A DNA stretch of 64,000 nucleotides from Escherichia phage moha, in sequence record MN850590.1, one strand, 5' to 3'. The position numbers and the translations under genes were made by a program. Under the pieces are notes generated by a model. That model searched no databases. It saw only the letters and a program-made list of their open reading frames with translations, and was not told the DNA's origin. This document shows, one piece after another, positions 17,419-50,512 of this stretch; the stretch's first letter is position 1; each line of letters begins with the position of its first letter.

Positions 17419-18054
17419 ATGAAAACTACTCCTATTACTATCGCTATTGACGCAATCGTAAAACAAGCTTCTTCTTTGGCTACTATGGCCAAAGTAATTA
17501 GTCAAAACCCTGCTCGTTATAATGCTATTCTAGAAACTCTTCGACGCCCAGGACTTAGCAATTATGAAAGCCGAGTAATTATTACAGGTGTTGGTAAGAA
17601 TGCTAATATTGCAACTAAAGCTTCTGAGACATTTGCTTCACTCGGTATCCCAAGTATGTACTTGAACACCGGGCATTATTCTCACGGTGATGCAGGATTC
17701 ATTGCGCCTAATGATGTGTTGATTCATATTAGTCGTTCTGGTAAGACCGAAGAAATGATAGGTGTTGCTAAACATCTTCGTATGATTCGTCCGAACGTCA
17801 AACAGATTCTGTTGCATTGTAACCCAGACATTCCACAAGAAAATGAAGCCCTTTTTGATTACTCTTTCTGTACAGGCATCGCAGTAGAGGTTGACGAGAA
17901 CTCTTTAGCTCCGACTATGTCTACTACATTGTTGTTAGCGCTTATCGATACGTTTGCTATCAACCTTTCGTCTGAGCGTGGATTTACCTCTAATGACTTC
18001 CTTAAGTTCCACCCTGGTGGTGCACTAGGTGCCATGTTACGAGGCGAACAATGA
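17419..18054 (+). CDS. SIS-domain sugar-phosphate isomerase (KdsD/GutQ-like arabinose-5-phosphate isomerase, no CBS domains)
   Basis: ITGVGKNANIA, HISRSGKTEE, LAPTMSTT, HPGGALG blocks co-linear with KdsD SIS domain. Confidence 0.8.
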   Translation: MKTTPITIAIDAIVKQASSLATMAKVISQNPARYNAILETLRRPGLSNYESRVIITGVGKNANIATKASETFASLGIPSMYLNTGHYSHGDAGFIAPNDVLIHISRSGKTEEMIGVAKHLRMIRPNVKQILLHCNPDIPQENEALFDYSFCTGIAVEVDENSLAPTMSTTLLLALIDTFAINLSSERGFTSNDFLKFHPGGALGAMLRGEQ

Positions 18055-18194
18055 AAGCAATAACAATAGGACTTTTACTATTGATGCTTGTCATGACTAT
18101 CTACTGGAGCTTAACAGCTCCAGTAATGATTCCAACACTTGTAATTGGATGGATTATGATTGGACTACAAGCAAAGTATGAATGCTTTAACTAG
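18051..18194 (+). CDS. Hypothetical 47-aa hydrophobic peptide
   Basis: ATGA overlap with SIS gene stop; hydrophobic throughout; below ORF-track cutoff. Confidence 0.25.
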   Translation: MKAITIGLLLLMLVMTIYWSLTAPVMIPTLVIGWIMIGLQAKYECFN

Positions 18195-18235: not shown

Positions 18236-19921
18236 ATGAAAAAAGCTGTTATTCTTGGTGCTGGATTGGCAACTCGTTTATATCCAATAACGCATCATAT
18301 TCCTAAGGTGCTTGTTAACTATAAACAAGACACTATTCTGAGCAATTTGTATACAATTTATTCTGACCTTGGCGCAGATGAAATTATTGTAGTAGTTCAT
18401 TCAAAATTTGCTGAAACTGTTCGAGCTTATTGTGAGCAAGAAGGGTTCAATGTGACTATTCGTACAGTTGATGAAGCGTATGGATCTGCTTATGCTCTTG
18501 CTAAATTACACAAAGATTTAGACGGCCATAATGTAATTGTTAACTGGTGTGATATTATTCCTGATTTTGGTTCATGGTCTTGGAATGTTAACGCAATCTA
18601 TGTTAAAGGTGACGAATGTCGATATAATTTCGACGGTGAAAATATCACTAACGTAGGTTCAACAGGTGGTAATGTTGTAGGAATTTATCAGTTCAAAGAC
18701 TGGGAATTCTATATGGGTTCTACTGATGAAGAAATTCATGAATACTGCAAAGGACGTGATTTCGTAGAATTCCTTTACGCCAGCGCATTCAATAAATCAG
18801 AGCTTATGAATCTAATTGATTTAGGTGATATGCCTAAACTTGAAAAGGCTCATGAAGTTCGTGAACTTAATCGTAGTTTTAATGCAGTTGAAATTGGTGA
18901 AGAAACTGTAACTAAATTCGCATTGACCGAACAGGGTCGAGCTCTTCAGAAAGATGAGATTTCATGGTATCTTAAAGTGAAATCGGATTCAGTTCCTCAG
19001 TTAGTTTCTGTTAATGAAAATAACTTTGAAATGGAACGCATTAAAGGTAAGCCGGCATTTGAATATATTAAATCCAAATCAAGTCTTGCTCGTCCACAAA
19101 TTGTTGATGCAATTTTAGATGCACTGAAATTCAGCACAGACACTTATTTTGTAAGTCCTGAAACTGTTCGTCGTGATTTCACTAAAGAATTCTATACGAA
19201 AGTTATTGATCGTTGTGAAAGCATTCAACCATTGATTGATTCATTTGGTAAAATCACGCATGTGAACTACACTAAGATTGGACGTCTGAAGCCAATGCTG
19301 AAACAAGCTTTAGAACACCTTATTCGTTATCATAACCGTTCTCAGGGGCAGTACTCTGTTATTCACGGTGACCCGAACTTCAGTAATACTATGATTACTG
19401 ATAACGGCGAAGTCAAGTTTATCGACCCTCGTGGATATTTTGGCGAAACCAAGATTTACGGGCCAAAATTGTATGATGAAGCTAAAGTGCTTTATGCTGT
19501 TTCAGGTTATGATGAATTCAATGCTAATCCGACCTGGGGACAGTTTACTATTGATGAAACAACTTGTAATGTGACTATTAACATCAATCCATTAGTTTAC
19601 AAATATGGAAAGATGAGTTCGTTTAACGAGTATCATCATTTGGCAGTGGCAATTATCTGGATTGCATTAGGTGGTTATTTCAAGAATAATCCACTTAAAG
19701 CGGTAGCCGCATATTATAAAGGTATGGAACTTCTGACTAAGCAATTACGTAACATGGGCCGTGTACTTCAGGACGGCTCTATTAGTTATGACGTAGCAGA
19801 ACCTGTAACGGCTACTCTGATTACAAAAAATCCTGGTAAATGGGTACTAACTGATAAAGAAACTGGTGTTTCCTATCGTCCAATCGGTGGCGATATCACT
19901 CATCAATGGGAACGAATCTAA
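18236..19921 (+). CDS. Bifunctional sugar-1-phosphate nucleotidyltransferase / APH-fold sugar kinase
   Basis: N-terminal AVILGAGLATRL nucleotidyltransferase motif; C-terminal HGDPNFSN (HxDxxxxN) and IDPRG kinase motifs. Confidence 0.7.
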   Translation: MKKAVILGAGLATRLYPITHHIPKVLVNYKQDTILSNLYTIYSDLGADEIIVVVHSKFAETVRAYCEQEGFNVTIRTVDEAYGSAYALAKLHKDLDGHNVIVNWCDIIPDFGSWSWNVNAIYVKGDECRYNFDGENITNVGSTGGNVVGIYQFKDWEFYMGSTDEEIHEYCKGRDFVEFLYASAFNKSELMNLIDLGDMPKLEKAHEVRELNRSFNAVEIGEETVTKFALTEQGRALQKDEISWYLKVKSDSVPQLVSVNENNFEMERIKGKPAFEYIKSKSSLARPQIVDAILDALKFSTDTYFVSPETVRRDFTKEFYTKVIDRCESIQPLIDSFGKITHVNYTKIGRLKPMLKQALEHLIRYHNRSQGQYSVIHGDPNFSNTMITDNGEVKFIDPRGYFGETKIYGPKLYDEAKVLYAVSGYDEFNANPTWGQFTIDETTCNVTININPLVYKYGKMSSFNEYHHLAVAIIWIALGGYFKNNPLKAVAAYYKGMELLTKQLRNMGRVLQDGSISYDVAEPVTATLITKNPGKWVLTDKETGVSYRPIGGDITHQWERI

Positions 19922-21802: not shown

Positions 21803-22519
21803 ATGGGAAAACATAACACAATGAAATATATCAAAGCCGCAGATTTTCAAACCGCATTTAAAGCAGTCAATCGTGAAATTTTAGAAAACCCGGAATTCGT
21901 AACTGATTCTCGTATTGGACGTTGTAATGAAATTGGGTCTATGACAGTAGTTGTTGACACTCCATCATCATTCAAAATGACCGACCCACGTATTAACCGC
22001 ATCTCTTATGAATATGCCGAAGACTTCTGGAAGTTTATGATTTCTGGTGGTACCAACGCAGAAGAAGCGTTTAAGGCATATCCTAATGTCGCTAAATTTA
22101 TTTCTAAACCAAAATCAGATGTTTTGCCGGCGAACTTCAACACTTTCTATGGTCCTCGCATTGCGGCTCAATTACCAGCTCTTCTAAAAGAACTTAAAGA
22201 GAAGCCTAACTCTCGAAGAGTTGTGTTCCAAATTCTAGAAAGTTCTGATCAGGCTTTGCTTGATTCGGACGAAACGCTTGAATATCCATGTACTGACTCA
22301 GTGACTTATTATATTCGTGATGGTAAGCTTTATACCCACTGTCATATGCGTTCTCAGAACTGTGCTGTTGTTATGCAGTTGGATTTTTATCTCCAAGGAA
22401 AATTACTTCATTATATCGCTAACGAATGTGGTGTAGAAGTTGGTGATTATACTCATACCATGGTAAGTGCCCATGTGTTTGAACGTGATTTTGATTATGT
22501 TAAAGGATTCCTTGACTAA
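21803..22519 (+). CDS. 42: ThyA-fold pyrimidine hydroxymethylase (dCMP hydroxymethylase-like)
   Basis: Candidate nucleophile Cys in EYPCTDSV and HMRSQN block typical of thymidylate synthase/dCMP hydroxymethylase family; position of T4 gene 42. Confidence 0.7.
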   Translation: MGKHNTMKYIKAADFQTAFKAVNREILENPEFVTDSRIGRCNEIGSMTVVVDTPSSFKMTDPRINRISYEYAEDFWKFMISGGTNAEEAFKAYPNVAKFISKPKSDVLPANFNTFYGPRIAAQLPALLKELKEKPNSRRVVFQILESSDQALLDSDETLEYPCTDSVTYYIRDGKLYTHCHMRSQNCAVVMQLDFYLQGKLLHYIANECGVEVGDYTHTMVSAHVFERDFDYVKGFLD

Positions 22520-25582: not shown

Positions 25583-27025
25583 GTGGTAGAAATTATTTTG
25601 TCTCATCTAGTATACGACCAGGCTTATTTTTCTAAGGTCTGGCCTTATATGGATTCTGAGTATTTTGAGCGTGGACCGGCAAAAAACGTCTTTAAAATTA
25701 TAAAGAGCCACGTTAACGAATATAATGCAATGCCATCTATCAATGCATTAAAGGTGGCTTTAGATAACAGTTCTTTAACTGAAGCCGAATATAAAGGAAC
25801 TTCAGACCTAATTGAAAAATTGGCTGATACTCCTGAAGACCACGAATGGTTGGTTAAAGAAACTGAGAAATATGTCCAGCAAAAAGCGATGTATAATGCT
25901 ACATCCAAAATCATTGAGATTCAGTCTAATGCTGAACTACCTCCAGAACAACGTAACAAGAAAATGCCTGATGTAGGAGCTATTCCTGATATTATGCGTC
26001 AAGCACTTTCAATTTCGTTTGATAGTTATGTTGGACATGACTGGATGGAAGACTACGAAGCACGCTGGCTTTCTTATCTAAATAAAGCACGTAAGGTCCC
26101 GTTCAAATTAAACATTCTGAATAAAATCACTAAAGGTGGTGCTGAAACCGGTACACTGAATGTTTTAATGGCCGGTGTTAACGTTGGTAAATCTTTAGGC
26201 CTTTGTTCACTTGCTGCAGATTATCTTCAAACAGGTCATAATGTTCTTTATATTTCTATGGAAATGGCTGAAGAAGTTTGTGCTAAGCGTATAGATGCAA
26301 ACATGCTTGACGTATCACTCGATGATATCGATGATGGTAACGTATCTTATGCTGAATATAAAGCCAAGATGGAAAAATGGCGTTCAAAATCCACATTAGG
26401 ACGTTTAGTAGTTAAACAGTATCCTACTGGTGGAGCTAACGCTAATACATTTCGTGCATTGCTTAATGAGTTAAAACTTAAGAAGAACTTTGTGCCATCT
26501 GTAATCATGGTTGATTACTTAGGTATTTGTGGGTCTTGTCGTATCAGAGTTTACACTGAAAATAGCTACACATTAGTTAAAGCTATTGCAGAAGAACTTC
26601 GTGCATTAGCAGTAGAATCTGAAACAGTTCTATGGACTGCAGCTCAAGTAGGACGTGCAGCATGGGATGCTTCAGACATGAACATGAGTGATATCGCAGA
26701 ATCAGCAGGTTTACCAGCAACGGCAGATTTCATGTTGGCCGTAATTGAAACCGAAGAACTTGCACAAGCTGAACAACAACTTATCAAACAAATAAAATCA
26801 CGATATGGTGATAAGAATAAGTGGAATAAATTCCTGATGGGTGTACGTAAAGGCAATCAGAAATGGGTTGAGATTGAGCAAGAAGGCATGAACACACCTA
26901 ACACAGTAAATGAAAACGCAGGTGCTCAGATGCGTCAGGCAGAGGTGAATCGTACGGAACGCGTAGGTAAAGCCAAAGCAACACGTGCTGACCTAGATAG
27001 CTTAGCCAACGAGTTAAAATTTTAA
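25583..27025 (+). CDS. 41: Replicative DNA helicase gp41 (DnaB-like)
   Basis: Walker A GVNVGKSLG, RecA-fold C-terminal domain; GTG start after TAAGGAG. Confidence 0.9.
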   Translation: MVEIILSHLVYDQAYFSKVWPYMDSEYFERGPAKNVFKIIKSHVNEYNAMPSINALKVALDNSSLTEAEYKGTSDLIEKLADTPEDHEWLVKETEKYVQQKAMYNATSKIIEIQSNAELPPEQRNKKMPDVGAIPDIMRQALSISFDSYVGHDWMEDYEARWLSYLNKARKVPFKLNILNKITKGGAETGTLNVLMAGVNVGKSLGLCSLAADYLQTGHNVLYISMEMAEEVCAKRIDANMLDVSLDDIDDGNVSYAEYKAKMEKWRSKSTLGRLVVKQYPTGGANANTFRALLNELKLKKNFVPSVIMVDYLGICGSCRIRVYTENSYTLVKAIAEELRALAVESETVLWTAAQVGRAAWDASDMNMSDIAESAGLPATADFMLAVIETEELAQAEQQLIKQIKSRYGDKNKWNKFLMGVRKGNQKWVEIEQEGMNTPNTVNENAGAQMRQAEVNRTERVGKAKATRADLDSLANELKF

Positions 27026-27030
27026 TAAAA

Positions 27031-27052
27031 AGGAGACTTCGGTCTCCTTTCG
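27031..27052 (+). terminator. Intrinsic terminator after gene 41
   Basis: GGAGAC-TTCG-GTCTCC followed by TTTCGTGGTTT. Confidence 0.65.
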
Positions 27053-27054
27053 TG

Positions 27055-27084
27055 GTTTACATCTTCCTCTAGGCATGATATGAT
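27055..27084 (+). promoter_or_regulatory. Early-type promoter
   Basis: -35 GTTTAC (27055-27060), -10 TATGAT. Confidence 0.45.
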
Positions 27085-27113
27085 GTACTTACACAAACCA
27101 AGAGGAAAACATT

Positions 27114-27488
27114 ATGAATATGTCTCAAGCAATTTTTACTGCAATCACCGAAAACACAACTGTTGAAGTAGTTTCTCCACTGGCAACCTACGTTATTCTT
27201 GCTCCTAAAACTATTGTATCTCGTATGGAAAACACAGGCAAACGTATCGTACAAATAGTTGGAGCTGGAAATCAAAAACTTGATTATCTACGAACCATCA
27301 AAGCTTACGAACATTTCCAACTCGAAAAAGGTTCTCCTATCCAGGTAGAACTCGTAAATGGTGATATCGTTCGAGCAATGTTCCATCATTTCTATGCATT
27401 GAATGACCCATCTAAAGCGGTTCGTTTAATTGCATACGACGCAAACCAAAACGAAATCAACGCAGATGTATCTAAATTACGTTTTTAA
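27114..27488 (+). CDS. Hypothetical protein
   Basis: 124-aa ORF. Confidence 0.5.
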   Translation: MNMSQAIFTAITENTTVEVVSPLATYVILAPKTIVSRMENTGKRIVQIVGAGNQKLDYLRTIKAYEHFQLEKGSPIQVELVNGDIVRAMFHHFYALNDPSKAVRLIAYDANQNEINADVSKLRF

Positions 27489-27536
27489 GTTTACTTCTCC
27501 AGTAGTTGTGTTATTATAGATCTATCAACTACTGGA
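27488..27536 (+). promoter_or_regulatory. Early-type promoter embedded in 12-bp inverted repeat that includes the downstream SD
   Basis: -35 GTTTAC 27488-27493, -10 TATTAT 27511-27516; arms CTCCAGTAGTTG (27496-27507) and CAACTACTGGAG (27525-27536). Confidence 0.55.
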
Positions 27537-27543
27537 GAACAAA

Positions 27544-27861
27544 ATGAAAACCATCGATTGTAAAGCAGAATTTAAGATTTTTTATCAAGGTTCAAGTAGT
27601 TCAGCTAACATCGAAAACATGCTTTGTCCTCCTGAAGAAACAGGAGTTCTGTCTGAAACTGGACGTAAGAAAAACTTGGATCGTGTATTCTTTACTGAAG
27701 ATATCGGTTTAGCAAAGATTTATGCAGGACGAGCAGCACGCTCTTATGGAGGTGAACCACGTCTCTATCGAGTAATTTCTCCGGTAGATGTAGTTCAAAT
27801 GAATGATACTAAAGGCGCTACAGTTTATCACGCTGAATGGGCCTTTTGCGAGGAAATATGA
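27544..27861 (+). CDS. Hypothetical protein
   Basis: 105-aa ORF with GGAG RBS. Confidence 0.5.
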   Translation: MKTIDCKAEFKIFYQGSSSSANIENMLCPPEETGVLSETGRKKNLDRVFFTEDIGLAKIYAGRAARSYGGEPRLYRVISPVDVVQMNDTKGATVYHAEWAFCEEI

Positions 27862-28265: not shown

Positions 28266-28295
28266 GTTTACAAGCACCACATACTGTGTTACTAT
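28266..28295 (+). promoter_or_regulatory. Early-type promoter
   Basis: -35 GTTTAC, -10 TACTAT. Confidence 0.45.
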
Positions 28296-28323: not shown

Positions 28324-28692
28324 ATGAAAAAATTAATCGCTTTAGCAATGGTATTTGGATTAACCGGATGTGGTGCCCATGGCTTTATCCCTAATAATGT
28401 CGGCCAATTGATTTACAATCCTAATGTTAAACAATATGAACAACCTAAAGTTGAAGTGGAAGACCCGGTTACTGTAGGTAATCGAATGATTCAAGCTGAT
28501 GCCCATGCTCAACGTTATCGTGACTCTGATACTGTAGCATTGTCAAAAGAACAACGCGTTAAAGAACATTGCTTACAGGCTACTGAAATCGCATTCATTC
28601 GCTATGTTGAAACAACTGGCAAAGAGCCTACCCAGAAACAAATCGCGAATAACTACGTCCAGTGTATTGAACGTTTAAACAAATTTAATTAA
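28324..28692 (+). CDS. Predicted lipoprotein
   Basis: Signal peptide with lipobox LTGC. Confidence 0.55.
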   Translation: MKKLIALAMVFGLTGCGAHGFIPNNVGQLIYNPNVKQYEQPKVEVEDPVTVGNRMIQADAHAQRYRDSDTVALSKEQRVKEHCLQATEIAFIRYVETTGKEPTQKQIANNYVQCIERLNKFN

Positions 28693-28695
28693 TTG

Positions 28696-28725
28696 GTTTA
28701 CACCAAAGTTAAAACAAGATACTAT
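28696..28725 (+). promoter_or_regulatory. Early-type promoter
   Basis: -35 GTTTAC, -10 TACTAT. Confidence 0.45.
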
Positions 28726-28753
28726 AAACATAACAAATCAAGAGGAAATTAAC

Positions 28754-29002
28754 ATGGAATTATTCGTAGCTAGTTCAGTAGCAGTTTTAATCGCAGGTAT
28801 TGGTTCAATCATCATTTACATGTTGCCTTGGGTAATCGCACTTATTCGTGGCACAAAAAGCACAACAGCAATCTTCTTTGTATCTTTACTCTTTAACTGG
28901 ACGATGATTGGTTGGATTGGAACTTTAATTTGGTCTATCGTTGCCGAAAAGAAATCTGCTCAGCAGCCTCAACAAGTAATTATTATTCGCGAAAAAGAAT
29001 AA
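28754..29002 (+). CDS. Small two-helix membrane protein (superinfection-immunity Imm-like candidate)
   Basis: 82 aa, two hydrophobic helices (LPWVIALIRG...NWTMIGWIGTLIW). Confidence 0.4.
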   Translation: MELFVASSVAVLIAGIGSIIIYMLPWVIALIRGTKSTTAIFFVSLLFNWTMIGWIGTLIWSIVAEKKSAQQPQQVIIIREKE

Positions 29003-29006
29003 ACTT

Positions 29007-29041
29007 GTTTACATTATAGATGGACTATAGTATAGTAGTCC
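29007..29041 (+). promoter_or_regulatory. Early-type promoter with short IR
   Basis: -35 GTTTAC 29007-29012, -10 TATAGT; GGACTA/TAGTCC arms. Confidence 0.45.
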
Positions 29042-29065
29042 TATCAAATCAACTAAGGAGTTAAA

Positions 29066-29359
29066 ATGAAAAAGTTATCATTGGCAGCAATCTTACTTGC
29101 AGTATCATGTGCACCGGCTCCAGTTACGGCAGGTTATGATAAAGACCTCTGTGAGTGGTCAATGACTGCAAATCAAGAAGATGTTGAACAACAAATCTTC
29201 TCTGATATCATGAACATCACTAAACGAGACCGTCCTAATATGGTTAATAAAGTTGTTGAACAACTTAAGTCTGGCGGTGTCATGCAGTACAACTATGTTT
29301 TGTATTGTGACCCTAATTTCGATAACAAAGATATCGTAACCGAAATCACAGGTGAATAA
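29066..29359 (+). CDS. sp: Periplasmic Spackle-like protein
   Basis: 97 aa with signal peptide; GYDKDLCEWSMTA and GGVMQYNYVLYCD blocks match T4 Spackle as recalled; located between 41 and 61. Confidence 0.6.
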   Translation: MKKLSLAAILLAVSCAPAPVTAGYDKDLCEWSMTANQEDVEQQIFSDIMNITKRDRPNMVNKVVEQLKSGGVMQYNYVLYCDPNFDNKDIVTEITGE

Positions 29360-30012: not shown

Positions 30013-30210
30013 ATGACTACTGCAATTTGCACTGGTTCTAAAATTAGTGTTTTTACAAGTTTTGAAGATTATGAAGTTGTTTCAAAACACCAATGCCATA
30101 TTAGCGTAAAAGCTAATGACGGTGTAATTTGGAATATTCCACAGTATGAAGGCACTACATATGAAGTCACAGATATAAATGGTGACAAAGCAATCTTTGT
30201 AATTGATTAA
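30013..30210 (+). CDS. Hypothetical protein
   Basis: 65-aa ORF. Confidence 0.45.
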   Translation: MTTAICTGSKISVFTSFEDYEVVSKHQCHISVKANDGVIWNIPQYEGTTYEVTDINGDKAIFVID

Positions 30211-30229
30211 ATATACTCAGGAGGTACCT

Positions 30230-30697
30230 ATGGGTATTATTAACACTGCGATAGATTCTGTTTACGCATATAAGTTTATTCGACTAATGCAAAAACCTTT
30301 TACCGAATGGAAAGCATACGAAGCCAAAATCATCGATGAACGTGGAAGTGTTCTTAAACGTCCTTCCACTCCTGAAGAGAAAGCGGCTTATACACCTTTT
30401 CATGCTTCAGTTCGTTCAATGAAGCGAATGATGAACACTGTTCCAGGTCTTAATGGAATGGCATCAATGATGTCTGCTTGGAGTGCTGTAGCTTCACGCT
30501 ATAACATTACGGAAGAACAACAGAAAGAAATATTTAAAGAGCTCCCTTTATTTGAGGATATGGTTGCTGGTGATTCAGGCGACAGTCCTCAAGCTATTGC
30601 ATCAGGAACAACTACAGGTGCAGTCGTAAATAAAGGTCCAGAACAAATTCCTTCCAAGAAAAGAAAGCGAATTAAAGTAAATATTAATAAGTTGTGA
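30230..30697 (+). CDS. Hypothetical protein
   Basis: ATG 30230 after AGGAGG. Confidence 0.5.
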   Translation: MGIINTAIDSVYAYKFIRLMQKPFTEWKAYEAKIIDERGSVLKRPSTPEEKAAYTPFHASVRSMKRMMNTVPGLNGMASMMSAWSAVASRYNITEEQQKEIFKELPLFEDMVAGDSGDSPQAIASGTTTGAVVNKGPEQIPSKKRKRIKVNINKL

Positions 30698-30736: not shown

Positions 30737-31759
30737 ATGGCTGAATGGATAGATAATGAATTTGCTTATCGTGCGTTTTCTCACCTACCTCGTTTTAGAC
30801 AAATTAATAATTCAAGCACATTTAAATTAACATTTCGTTGTCCAGTTTGTGGCGACTCTCAGACAGATGCAATGAAAGCTCGCGGATGGTATTACGGTGG
30901 TACTCCTGGTAATGTACATTGCTATAACTGTCAATACCACAATACAATTTCCGGATACTTAAAAGAGTATGATGAAGAGCTTTATCGCGAATATCTAATG
31001 GAAGTTCGTAAAGAAAAAGCTAGAATGGAACCAAAGATTGAAAAGGTTCCTGAACATAAACCAGAACCGGAGAAAAAGACTATAAATTCTTTGCCGTCTT
31101 GTTCTCGTCTGGACAAGTTGCCTGAAGAGCATCCTATTGTGAAATATGTTAAGTCTCGGTGTATTCCTAAAGAATCATGGAACAGATTATGGTTCACATT
31201 AGAATGGCCCAAATTGGTCAACAAGATTCAACCTGGTACGTATAAGAAAGAGATTCCCGAACCACGTTTAGTTATTCCTATTTTTAATAAAGATGGGAAG
31301 GCCGAGTCATTCCAAGGACGTGCACTTCGTAAAGATGCTCCTCAGAAATATATCACTATTAAAGCGTTTGAGTCTGCAACAAAAATTTATGGTGTTGAAC
31401 GTGTTAAGGAAGGGGACGTCTGGGTAATGGAAGGCCCTATTGATAGTTTATTCATACCCAATGCAATCGCTATTACAGGCGGCTCAATAGATTTAGATGT
31501 GGTACCATTTAAAGAACGTCGGGTATGGGTAATGGATAATGAACCTAGGCATCCAGATACTATAGCTCGCATGAAGCGATTAGTTGATGCAGGCGAACGT
31601 GTCATGTTCTGGGACCGAGCTCCATGGAGATCAAAGGATGTGAATGATATGGTAATGAAAGAAAATGCAACACCACAAGAAATTTTAGAATATATGAAAC
31701 AGAATATTTCAAGTGGGTTGCATGCTAAAATGAGATTATCTCGTTATTCGAAGATTTAA
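30737..31759 (+). CDS. 61: DNA primase gp61
   Basis: N-terminal zinc ribbon CPVCGDS...CYNC; Toprim-like C-terminal part; 340 aa. Confidence 0.85.
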   Translation: MAEWIDNEFAYRAFSHLPRFRQINNSSTFKLTFRCPVCGDSQTDAMKARGWYYGGTPGNVHCYNCQYHNTISGYLKEYDEELYREYLMEVRKEKARMEPKIEKVPEHKPEPEKKTINSLPSCSRLDKLPEEHPIVKYVKSRCIPKESWNRLWFTLEWPKLVNKIQPGTYKKEIPEPRLVIPIFNKDGKAESFQGRALRKDAPQKYITIKAFESATKIYGVERVKEGDVWVMEGPIDSLFIPNAIAITGGSIDLDVVPFKERRVWVMDNEPRHPDTIARMKRLVDAGERVMFWDRAPWRSKDVNDMVMKENATPQEILEYMKQNISSGLHAKMRLSRYSKI

Positions 31760-40749: not shown

Positions 40750-40798
40750 GTTTACTTCTCCTCTGGTTTTGATATTATAACCATATCAACCAGAGGAG
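40750..40798 (+). promoter_or_regulatory. Early-type promoter embedded in 11-bp inverted repeat that includes the downstream SD
   Basis: -35 GTTTAC 40750-40755, -10 TATTAT 40773-40778; arms CTCCTCTGGTT (40758-40768) and AACCAGAGGAG (40788-40798). Confidence 0.55.
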
Positions 40799-40804
40799 AA
40801 TAAT

Positions 40805-41329
40805 ATGTTAGTTTACCGCGTAGAACGTAGTTTTTGTACTCAACGTGAATCATTACCCGGAATTGCTATCGAAGACGGTAAAGCCGTCAGAATTTGGGAA
40901 ACCTCTTGGAATAAAGAACCTCGCTCGCCGTACGGTTGGTCGGGTACCGACAACTCTGAAGAAACATGGGAGTTCCTTGATAAACACGGAATACTCTCAG
41001 GTAACTTCTACCATCACGGCGACAACTATAATGTCCCTAATCGTCCTACAGTAAATGAAGACAAACTCCTTGAACAAAATATCTTAAGATACTATAGAAT
41101 TGAGCACACATTTGAATTGAGTGAAGATTGGGCTCAAGGGTTCTATTTTGGATTTGAAAGTGTTGACGCGGTTTATACATGGTTTGATGACCAGGTGGAT
41201 GTTGAACTCTTGAAAGCTAAAGGATACTACATCGCGGTCTATGAAGCACCTGATTTCATACTCGGAAGTTGTCAATTAATGTTCAGACGTTCATTAGCAG
41301 AACAAGTTGATTTTATTTTGCTAAAATGA
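40805..41329 (+). CDS. Hypothetical protein
   Basis: 174-aa ORF with GAGGAG RBS. Confidence 0.5.
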   Translation: MLVYRVERSFCTQRESLPGIAIEDGKAVRIWETSWNKEPRSPYGWSGTDNSEETWEFLDKHGILSGNFYHHGDNYNVPNRPTVNEDKLLEQNILRYYRIEHTFELSEDWAQGFYFGFESVDAVYTWFDDQVDVELLKAKGYYIAVYEAPDFILGSCQLMFRRSLAEQVDFILLK

Positions 41330-49965: not shown

Positions 49966-50001
49966 GTTTACAACTAAGTAGGACTATGATATATTAGTCC
50001 T
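49966..50001 (+). promoter_or_regulatory. Early-type promoter with IR
   Basis: -35 GTTTAC 49966-49971; AGGACTA/TAGTCCT arms flank the -10 region. Confidence 0.45.
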
Positions 50002-50474: not shown

Positions 50475-50512
50475 GTTTACATCACGGTAGGATTATGGTA
50501 TAGTAGTCCTAC
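50475..50512 (+). promoter_or_regulatory. Early-type promoter with IR
   Basis: -35 GTTTAC 50475-50480, -10 TATAGT; GTAGGA/TCCTAC arms. Confidence 0.45.

Follow-up and report, generated by a model that had tools for sequence, protein, structure and literature searches.

We found that three adjacent genes of Escherichia phage moha, within a 64,000-nucleotide stretch of record MN850590.1 (hereafter the window), almost certainly correspond, as orthologues from the RB69 group (Mosigvirus), to imm.1, imm and sp of T4, an immediate-early anti-superinfection set in which the imm.1-imm part has been relocated from gene 43. The three genes are consecutive ORFs on the plus strand, which together fill positions 28324-29359 and span 1.04 kb. 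The first gene, imm.1 (28324..28692, plus strand), encodes a predicted lipoprotein of 122 aa; the second, imm (28754..29002, plus strand), encodes an 82-aa superinfection-immunity protein that is predicted to lie in the inner membrane; and the third, sp or 61.3 (29066..29359, plus strand), encodes Spackle, a 97-aa predicted periplasmic inhibitor of the gp5 lysozyme. Gaps of 60 nt, 61 nt and 63 nt precede imm.1, imm and sp, respectively. A sequence-only reading of this DNA had proposed three adjacent envelope-targeted genes at this place, and the ORFs were recovered on the plus strand with exactly the coordinates it gave.

On the 5′ side the trio is bordered by the gene for gp41, two small ORFs, dmd and 61.4, and on the 3′ side by 61.2 (whose product, AdfA, is an anti-DarT factor), two small genes and the primase gene 61 (30737-31759). 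The trio had been described as standing next to gene 61; it is indeed near that gene, but not directly adjacent to it, being parted from it by 61.2/adfA and the two small genes. The genes, their names and their positions are not new: the 3.3 kb around the trio share 98-99% identity with RB69 and with some 150 further genomes of Mosigvirus, and in the RB69 GenBank record (AY303349), dating from 2003, the same genes already carry the names imm.1, imm and sp, as they do in many of the related records. Local HMM searches over the 935 stop-to-stop segments of the window returned one imm, one imm.1 and one sp only, with no second copy of any of them. No Rfam family reached its gathering score anywhere in the window, and no NCBIfam match was obtained for any of the three proteins. 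The minus-strand ORFs across the region were set aside as noise, as they are short, lack family matches and overlap plus-strand genes.

The assignment of sp was supported by family, sequence and structure comparisons. Its product scored 144.8 bits against PF25676 (T4_Spackle; cut-off 27) and matched phrog_1586, 'spackle periplasmic', at E = 2e-42, and it aligned over its full length with T4 Sp at 67% identity (E = 1e-50). Searches against solved Spackle structures gave PDB 6X6O at 1e-39 and 7CN6 at 8e-34, so that the Spackle-like periplasmic protein of the sequence-only reading can be called Spackle itself. In T4, exported Spackle is trimmed by cleavage to 75 residues with a disulfide between Cys29 and Cys81, and it binds the gp5 lysozyme domain at a 1:1 ratio to inhibit it allosterically (PMC7677548). 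The N-terminus of the window protein is hydrophobic at residues 4-24 and signal-like, from which cleavage is predicted, and the Cys29/Cys81 pair is retained. Moreover, the gp5-contact residues S32, M33, T34, A35, Q37 and N76 are identical to those of T4. The window protein therefore resembles T4 Spackle (gp61.3; PDB 6X6O, 6XC0 and 7CN6) in length, signal sequence, cysteine pair, contact residues and a locus between 61.4 and 61.2. However, the two differ in the signal peptide, which reads AVSC...VTA in the window and LASC...AMA in T4, and in the 5′ neighbour of the gene, which is imm in the window and 61.4 in T4.

Similarly, the second gene encodes a full-length orthologue of T4 Imm. The profile search for Imm homology, which had been named beforehand as a refuting test, matched the whole 42-position model of PF14373 (Imm_superinfect) with 57.2 bits (cut-off 27.9; E = 1.5e-15). 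The protein also matched phrog_1039, 'immunity to superinfection', at E = 1e-30, and T4 Imm at 65-66% identity over 82/83 residues (E = 3e-37). Hydrophobic stretches were identified at about residues 1-34 and 40-59 with Kyte-Doolittle windows of at least 1.6, and the profile matches that of the 83-aa T4 protein. The earlier description of a two-helix, Imm-like protein thus stands for the homology and for the two stretches, but two helices may understate the fold, as a 2026 preprint models Imm with four (10.64898/2026.03.06.709160). The same preprint reports that T4 Imm and the helical-bundle domain of the tape-measure protein gp29 co-purify and yield a cryo-EM map, that the substitutions W50A and R33A abolish or lower exclusion, and that plasmid-borne Imm alone suffices to exclude T4 (10.64898/2026.03.06.709160). 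The equivalents of T4 R33 and W50 are R32 and W49 in the window protein and were invariant in the seven lineages aligned. They lie within the conserved motifs YMLPW..IAL.RG.KS and LLFNW..IGW, and the C-terminal VIIIREKE is kept as well. As an analogy, the preprint likens Imm to HK97 gp15, a small inner-membrane protein that contacts the incoming tape-measure protein and blocks genome translocation; gp15 differs in being encoded by a prophage and not by a lytic phage, and the likeness is one of function only (10.64898/2026.03.06.709160).

The lipoprotein gene, which the sequence-only reading had correctly described by its LTGC lipobox without recognising its family, is the orthologue of T4 imm.1. 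Its product scored 38.2 bits against PF17578 (DUF5481; cut-off 27; E = 2e-9), just over the cut-off, whereas T4 Imm.1 scored 239 bits. It matched phrog_1754, a family of unknown function, over its full length at E = 5.8e-29, and aligned over its full length with T4 Imm.1 at 33-35% identity (E = 3e-19). The N-terminus, MKKLIALAMVFGLTGC, places the lipobox at residues 13-16, with Cys16 as the lipidation residue and Gly at +2. The two proteins share the lipobox position, the motifs YNPNVK and AQxYR(D/N)SD, two conserved cysteines in the mature part and a gene immediately 5′ of imm, but the window protein lacks the extra Cys33/Cys44 pair of T4. In an alignment of 27 sequences, the window cysteines Cys83 and Cys114 occupy nearly invariant columns. 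Six of the seven lineages have the lipobox, and none of these carries Asp at +2; the remaining lineage has LAGF in its place and no lipidation cysteine. Under the +2 rule of E. coli, the absence of Asp at +2 predicts an outer-membrane destination.

From the same 27-sequence alignment, AlphaFold2 produced a weak, mostly helical model with a beta-hairpin and three helices (pLDDT 61, pTM 0.45). Foldseek found no PDB neighbour of this model below E = 2, and a profile search against PDB sequences returned only noise at the level of signal peptides (E at least 0.4). Scanned in full with HMMER, 1.8 billion representatives yielded eight homologous proteins, a count of about eight representatives at the 50% identity level, and a word-indexed search with a 10-sequence profile gave 26 clusters, all of whose contigs are phage-sized or smaller. 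Neither the HMMER scan nor the word-indexed search found a bacterial or otherwise annotated relative. As delimited by these searches, the Imm.1 family is tiny and phage-restricted. The closest relative outside the RB69 group is 47% identical and comes from a metagenomic contig (L008). A comparative paper counts Imm.1 among the proteins missing from the RB69 group (PMC5885020), which is contradicted by the 33%-identical orthologue in the window.

An Imm.1-family gene stands beside imm, or one small ORF away from it, in all seven lineages examined. It lies upstream of imm in the window, T4, Merlin, Roth76 and the metagenomic contig, and downstream of imm, after a 47-aa ORF, in P896 and AnYang, where the order is inverted. 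This neighbourhood, the predicted location and the rate of divergence together suggest Imm.1 as a candidate third factor. In the fullest form of this proposal, Imm.1 would be a third exclusion component, an outer-membrane lipoprotein partnering Imm, and its fast divergence would reflect an arms race with tail or baseplate proteins that sets the exclusion spectrum, which we regard as rather improbable. If it were true, each of three envelope layers would have its own guard, Imm.1 acting at the outer membrane, Spackle in the peptidoglycan layer and Imm in the inner membrane. The divergence cited for such an arms race is the 35% identity of Imm.1 to its T4 counterpart against about 66% for Imm and Sp.

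It is quite possible, although somewhat doubtful, that Imm.1 is instead unrelated to exclusion, being an envelope lipoprotein that stands near imm merely because both belong to a shared small, mobile early-gene cassette; it might then mask a receptor, stabilise the envelope or counter a defence system. Since plasmid-borne Imm excludes T4 by itself, Imm.1 is unnecessary for Imm activity, and this fits such a reading, as do the separate promoter matches of imm.1 and imm in the window, the loss of the lipidation cysteine in one lineage (LAGF) and a literature search that found no reported function of Imm.1. However, the pairing with imm persists in seven of seven lineages despite relocation in the window and inversion in P896 and AnYang, which exceeds what passive linkage usually keeps in a hyperplastic region. 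At most, Imm.1 would be accessory to Imm or a separate envelope factor.

The position of the pair was then compared with that in other T4-type genomes. The T4 order is 43 - imm.1 - imm - 42 - b-gt ... 41 - dmd - 61.4 - sp - 61.2 - 61.1 - 61, so that T4 imm lies between 43/imm.1 and 42, whereas the window imm lies between 61.4/imm.1 and sp. This agrees with the sequence-only reading, which had placed T4 imm near gene 42 and had seen a sugar cluster in the corresponding slot here. We found imm just after gene 43, or with no more than two small genes in between, in T4 and five other lineages, namely P896 (Gaprivervirus), Merlin (Moonvirus), AnYang (Dhakavirus), the Klebsiella T4-like phage Roth76 and the metagenomic contig. 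The order 61.4-imm.1-imm-sp was found only in the RB69 group, in about 154 records with at least 95% identity to the window, and the same records were returned by each of three protein and DNA searches. As imm is at gene 43 in all other lineages compared, this site is ancestral and the order in the window is derived. Given the orthology of the lipoprotein to T4 Imm.1, the moved unit was the two-gene imm.1-imm cassette and not imm by itself. The comparison of seven lineages thus supports the earlier suggestion that superinfection-exclusion genes had been shuffled as modules.

A footprint of the move was identified at the old locus. An ORF of 47 aa, predicted to encode a membrane protein (18051..18194, plus strand; phrog_3610 at 7e-27), stands beside gene 43 in the window and was left at the ancestral imm locus. 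In T4, P896, AnYang and the metagenomic contig, this ORF follows imm on its 3′ side, with an ATGA overlap of stop and start. It is no longer 3′ of imm in the window; there, its start overlaps, again as ATGA, the stop of an arabinose-5-phosphate isomerase-like gene (17419..18054, plus strand; phrog_5670 at 2e-116), which is the equivalent of ORF055c of RB69. The isomerase gene fills, between gene 43 and the 47-aa ORF, exactly the slot in which T4 has imm.1-imm, and the interval between genes 43 and 42 of the window contains arabinose and sugar-nucleotide genes. The isomerase belongs to a candidate module for ara-hmC synthesis in RB69 (PMC6024577). We also observed that the 47-aa ORF is unannotated in the T4 reference record.

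Imm and Sp have diverged from T4 (66% and 67% identity) to an extent like that of their neighbours (55-87%), which fits vertical descent with an internal move. Two outliers were found, Imm.1 at 35% and gp42 at 28%, and the latter indicates that the region has seen replacement. These outliers would agree with a horizontal origin, in which imm.1-imm was acquired beside sp by xenologous replacement and the gene-43 copy was lost separately on arrival of the sugar genes: Imm.1 is at 33-35% where its neighbours are at 55-87%, its nearest outside relative belongs to a metagenomic lineage, and gp42, the other outlier, sits in the old slot. However, Imm at 66% is as close to T4 as Sp and 61.2 are, the 47%-identical relative of Imm.1 is located at gene 43 and not by sp, and no donor of higher similarity was found among the 1.8 billion representatives. 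A horizontal origin is thus unlikely, and we favour relocation of the cassette within the genome.

Each gene of the trio is preceded by a match to GTTTACA-N17-TA(C/T)(T/A)(A/G)T, followed about 25 nt further on by a Shine-Dalgarno sequence and ATG. The matches lie on the plus strand at 28266..28295 before imm.1 (GTTTACA-N17-TACTAT), at 28696..28725 before imm (GTTTACA-N17-TACTAT) and at 29007..29036 before sp (GTTTACA-N17-TATAGT). The GTTTAC/TA-rich promoter that had been proposed for every gene was thus found, in the form of motif matches. Across the 64-kb window, GTTTAC-N17-19-TAnnnT occurred 17 times on the plus (coding) strand and once on the minus strand, against an expectation of about two per strand from mononucleotide shuffles, indicating a real strand-specific signal, and five consecutive matches occupy the gaps from gene 41 to sp. 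The motif conforms to the consensus published for early promoters of the T4 group, TTTACW-N17-TAYWAT (PMC4122927). From this consensus and the strand bias, we infer that the matches probably act as early promoters. The window imm has its own match in the 61-nt gap, unlike T4 imm, which follows imm.1 after a gap of 11 nt with no promoter.

We further considered whether the intergenic units correspond to PeSL elements (promoter-early stem-loops; Arbiol 2010; Comeau 2014). As in PeSLs, the small non-essential genes are each flanked by intergenic stretches about 60 nt long, the order within these is stop codon, -35, -10, Shine-Dalgarno and ATG, and their promoters fit the consensus. A stem-loop at about 29019-29045 covers the -10 of the sp cassette (z -2.6; an equally good fold arose in 3 of 200 shuffles), and significant stem-loops were also found in two cassettes further upstream, at 27055 and 27489 (z -2.9 and -5.15). 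However, folding was not significant in the imm.1 and imm cassettes (z +0.7 and +0.15), which thus lack the stem-loop that defines a PeSL. PeSL-type recombination is a proposed route of shuffling in T4-type phages (PMC2839356), and by analogy it is a plausible route for the relocation. The possibility that promoters travelled with their genes was rejected, as the pairs of window imm.1 with T4 imm.1, window imm with T4 sp and window sp with T4 dmd agreed at 36-40 of 66 positions, which is background in an all-against-all comparison of 20 early promoters (maximum 46, mean 29 of 66 positions). No recombination junction could be located, given that the likeness between window and T4 promoters is at background. 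That the adjacency of imm.1-imm and sp was selected as a co-regulated 'exclusion operon', and is not a product of neutral shuffling, is very unlikely, because, although the three products act in the envelope on incoming phage from within 1.04 kb and the arrangement is fixed in about 154 sequenced genomes, each gene has a separate promoter match, the sp stem-loop would attenuate read-through, the genes are about 6 kb apart in six other lineages, and fixation inside one group of 95-99% identity amounts to a single ancestral event.

By homology to the T4 proteins, exclusion, gp29 binding and gp5 inhibition are likely activities of the RB69-group proteins. The trio would then supply immediate-early envelope proteins that guard the infected cell from T-even phages arriving later. 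With a predicted sigma-70-type early promoter at each gene, expression would start right after infection. Imm in the inner membrane would bind the helical-bundle domain of incoming gp29 and so block the DNA-translocation channel. Spackle would be exported to the periplasm, cleaved to a disulfide-bonded helical protein of 75 residues, and bind gp5, the tail-spike protein of the incoming phage, at its lysozyme domain, inhibiting that domain allosterically. Imm.1 would be exported and lipid-anchored, at the outer membrane as predicted by the +2 rule, as a mostly helical protein with one conserved cysteine pair, and the gene neighbourhood suggests that it may be tied to Imm, either as an accessory or as a third factor in the envelope. 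At the level of the genome, imm.1-imm would have left the site downstream of gene 43 and settled between 61.4 and sp. Its old slot would have gone to the arabinose-5-phosphate isomerase gene, part of the arabinosyl-hmC module, and the promoter-bearing intergenic cassettes, as PeSL-type elements, may have mediated the shuffling.

As the mechanisms of Spackle and Imm have already been worked out for T4, the trio offers little that is new as a discovery, and what remains of interest is the clear footprint of the relocation, together with the conserved pairing of Imm.1 with Imm. The pairing marks a small, phage-restricted lipoprotein family as a candidate for an unrecognised function in exclusion or in the envelope. 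The locus itself represents a clean, datable case in which a gene cassette of a T4-type genome changed place and left a footprint, in that the translational coupling of the 47-aa ORF has passed from imm to a sugar-pathway gene. This footprint ties the move of imm.1-imm to the gain of the arabinosyl-hmC module, which isolates RB69 genetically from T4.

Because both AdfA and dmd are located between gene 41 and gene 61, this interval was identified as a series of early genes for anti-defence and exclusion, each with a predicted promoter of its own. AdfA, an anti-DarT factor, is the product of gene 61.2 (window 29352/29373-30011; PF23813, 1.5e-119), directly after the Spackle gene sp, while dmd, which encodes an antitoxin against RnlA/LsoA, was found two genes upstream of imm.1 (window 27837/27858-28049). 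We found that the dmd start region is overlapped by the end of a 105-aa ORF (window 27544-27861), the counterpart of RB69ORF040c and a member of phrog_2110. This ORF had no match in Pfam or NCBIfam, and the RefSeq record of phage HX01 calls it 'ADP-ribosyl transferase'.

Two further ORFs are single in the window and split in the RB69 record. A 164-aa ORF with a TTG start (window 30203-30697), matching phrog_2086 over residues 10-162, corresponds to two RB69 genes, ORF032c and 61.1, reflecting either a frameshift in the 2003 RB69 sequence or a real split. Similarly, a 561-aa ORF (window 18236-19921) corresponds to RB69 ORF053c plus ORF052c, consistent with the resequencing that showed these two to be one gene (Thomas et al. 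2018).

We also identified a conserved hydrophobic ORF of 47-49 aa (phrog_3610; window 18051-18194 and T4 NC_000866 ~26227-26376), which carries no annotation in the T4 reference record or that of the Dhakavirus AnYang. In T4, the Gaprivervirus P896, AnYang and the metagenomic contig L008, this ORF is ATGA-coupled to the imm stop, whereas its coupling partner in the window is the arabinose-5-phosphate isomerase gene. The nearest relative of the window's Imm.1, at 47% identity, is also carried by this contig (L008:718-1086; Logan SRR30535852), with a frd.3-like gene between it and gene 43. Because LAGF stands where the lipobox LAGC is expected, this relative is probably no longer anchored by a lipid but soluble in the periplasm. 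Moreover, the window gp42 homologue (dCMP hydroxymethylase; 21803-22519) shares only 28% identity with T4 gp42, whereas its neighbouring core genes reach 62-87%; this low identity is consistent with an arabinosyl-hmC module enzyme that was replaced or is evolving rapidly.

Among the early promoters, one subset has in common a palindrome surrounding the -10 box, GGACTAT(A/G)GTATAGTAGTCC, present at window 29007-29045, 49966-50000 and 50475-50510 and at T4 20612, the dmd promoter. The 'CTATCAACTAC' type promoters (window 27489, 28266 and 55542) are distinct from this subset. At three early promoters (window 27480-27546, 27026-27116 and ~40750-40805), we observed that the -35/-10 spacer is complementary to the leader that follows it downstream, and that this complementarity extends to the Shine-Dalgarno sequence. 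In the first of these, the stem (27495-27541) has 14 bp and a z of -5.15. With such pairing, the ribosome-binding site would be sequestered in transcripts reading through from upstream and would stay free in those begun at the local promoter.
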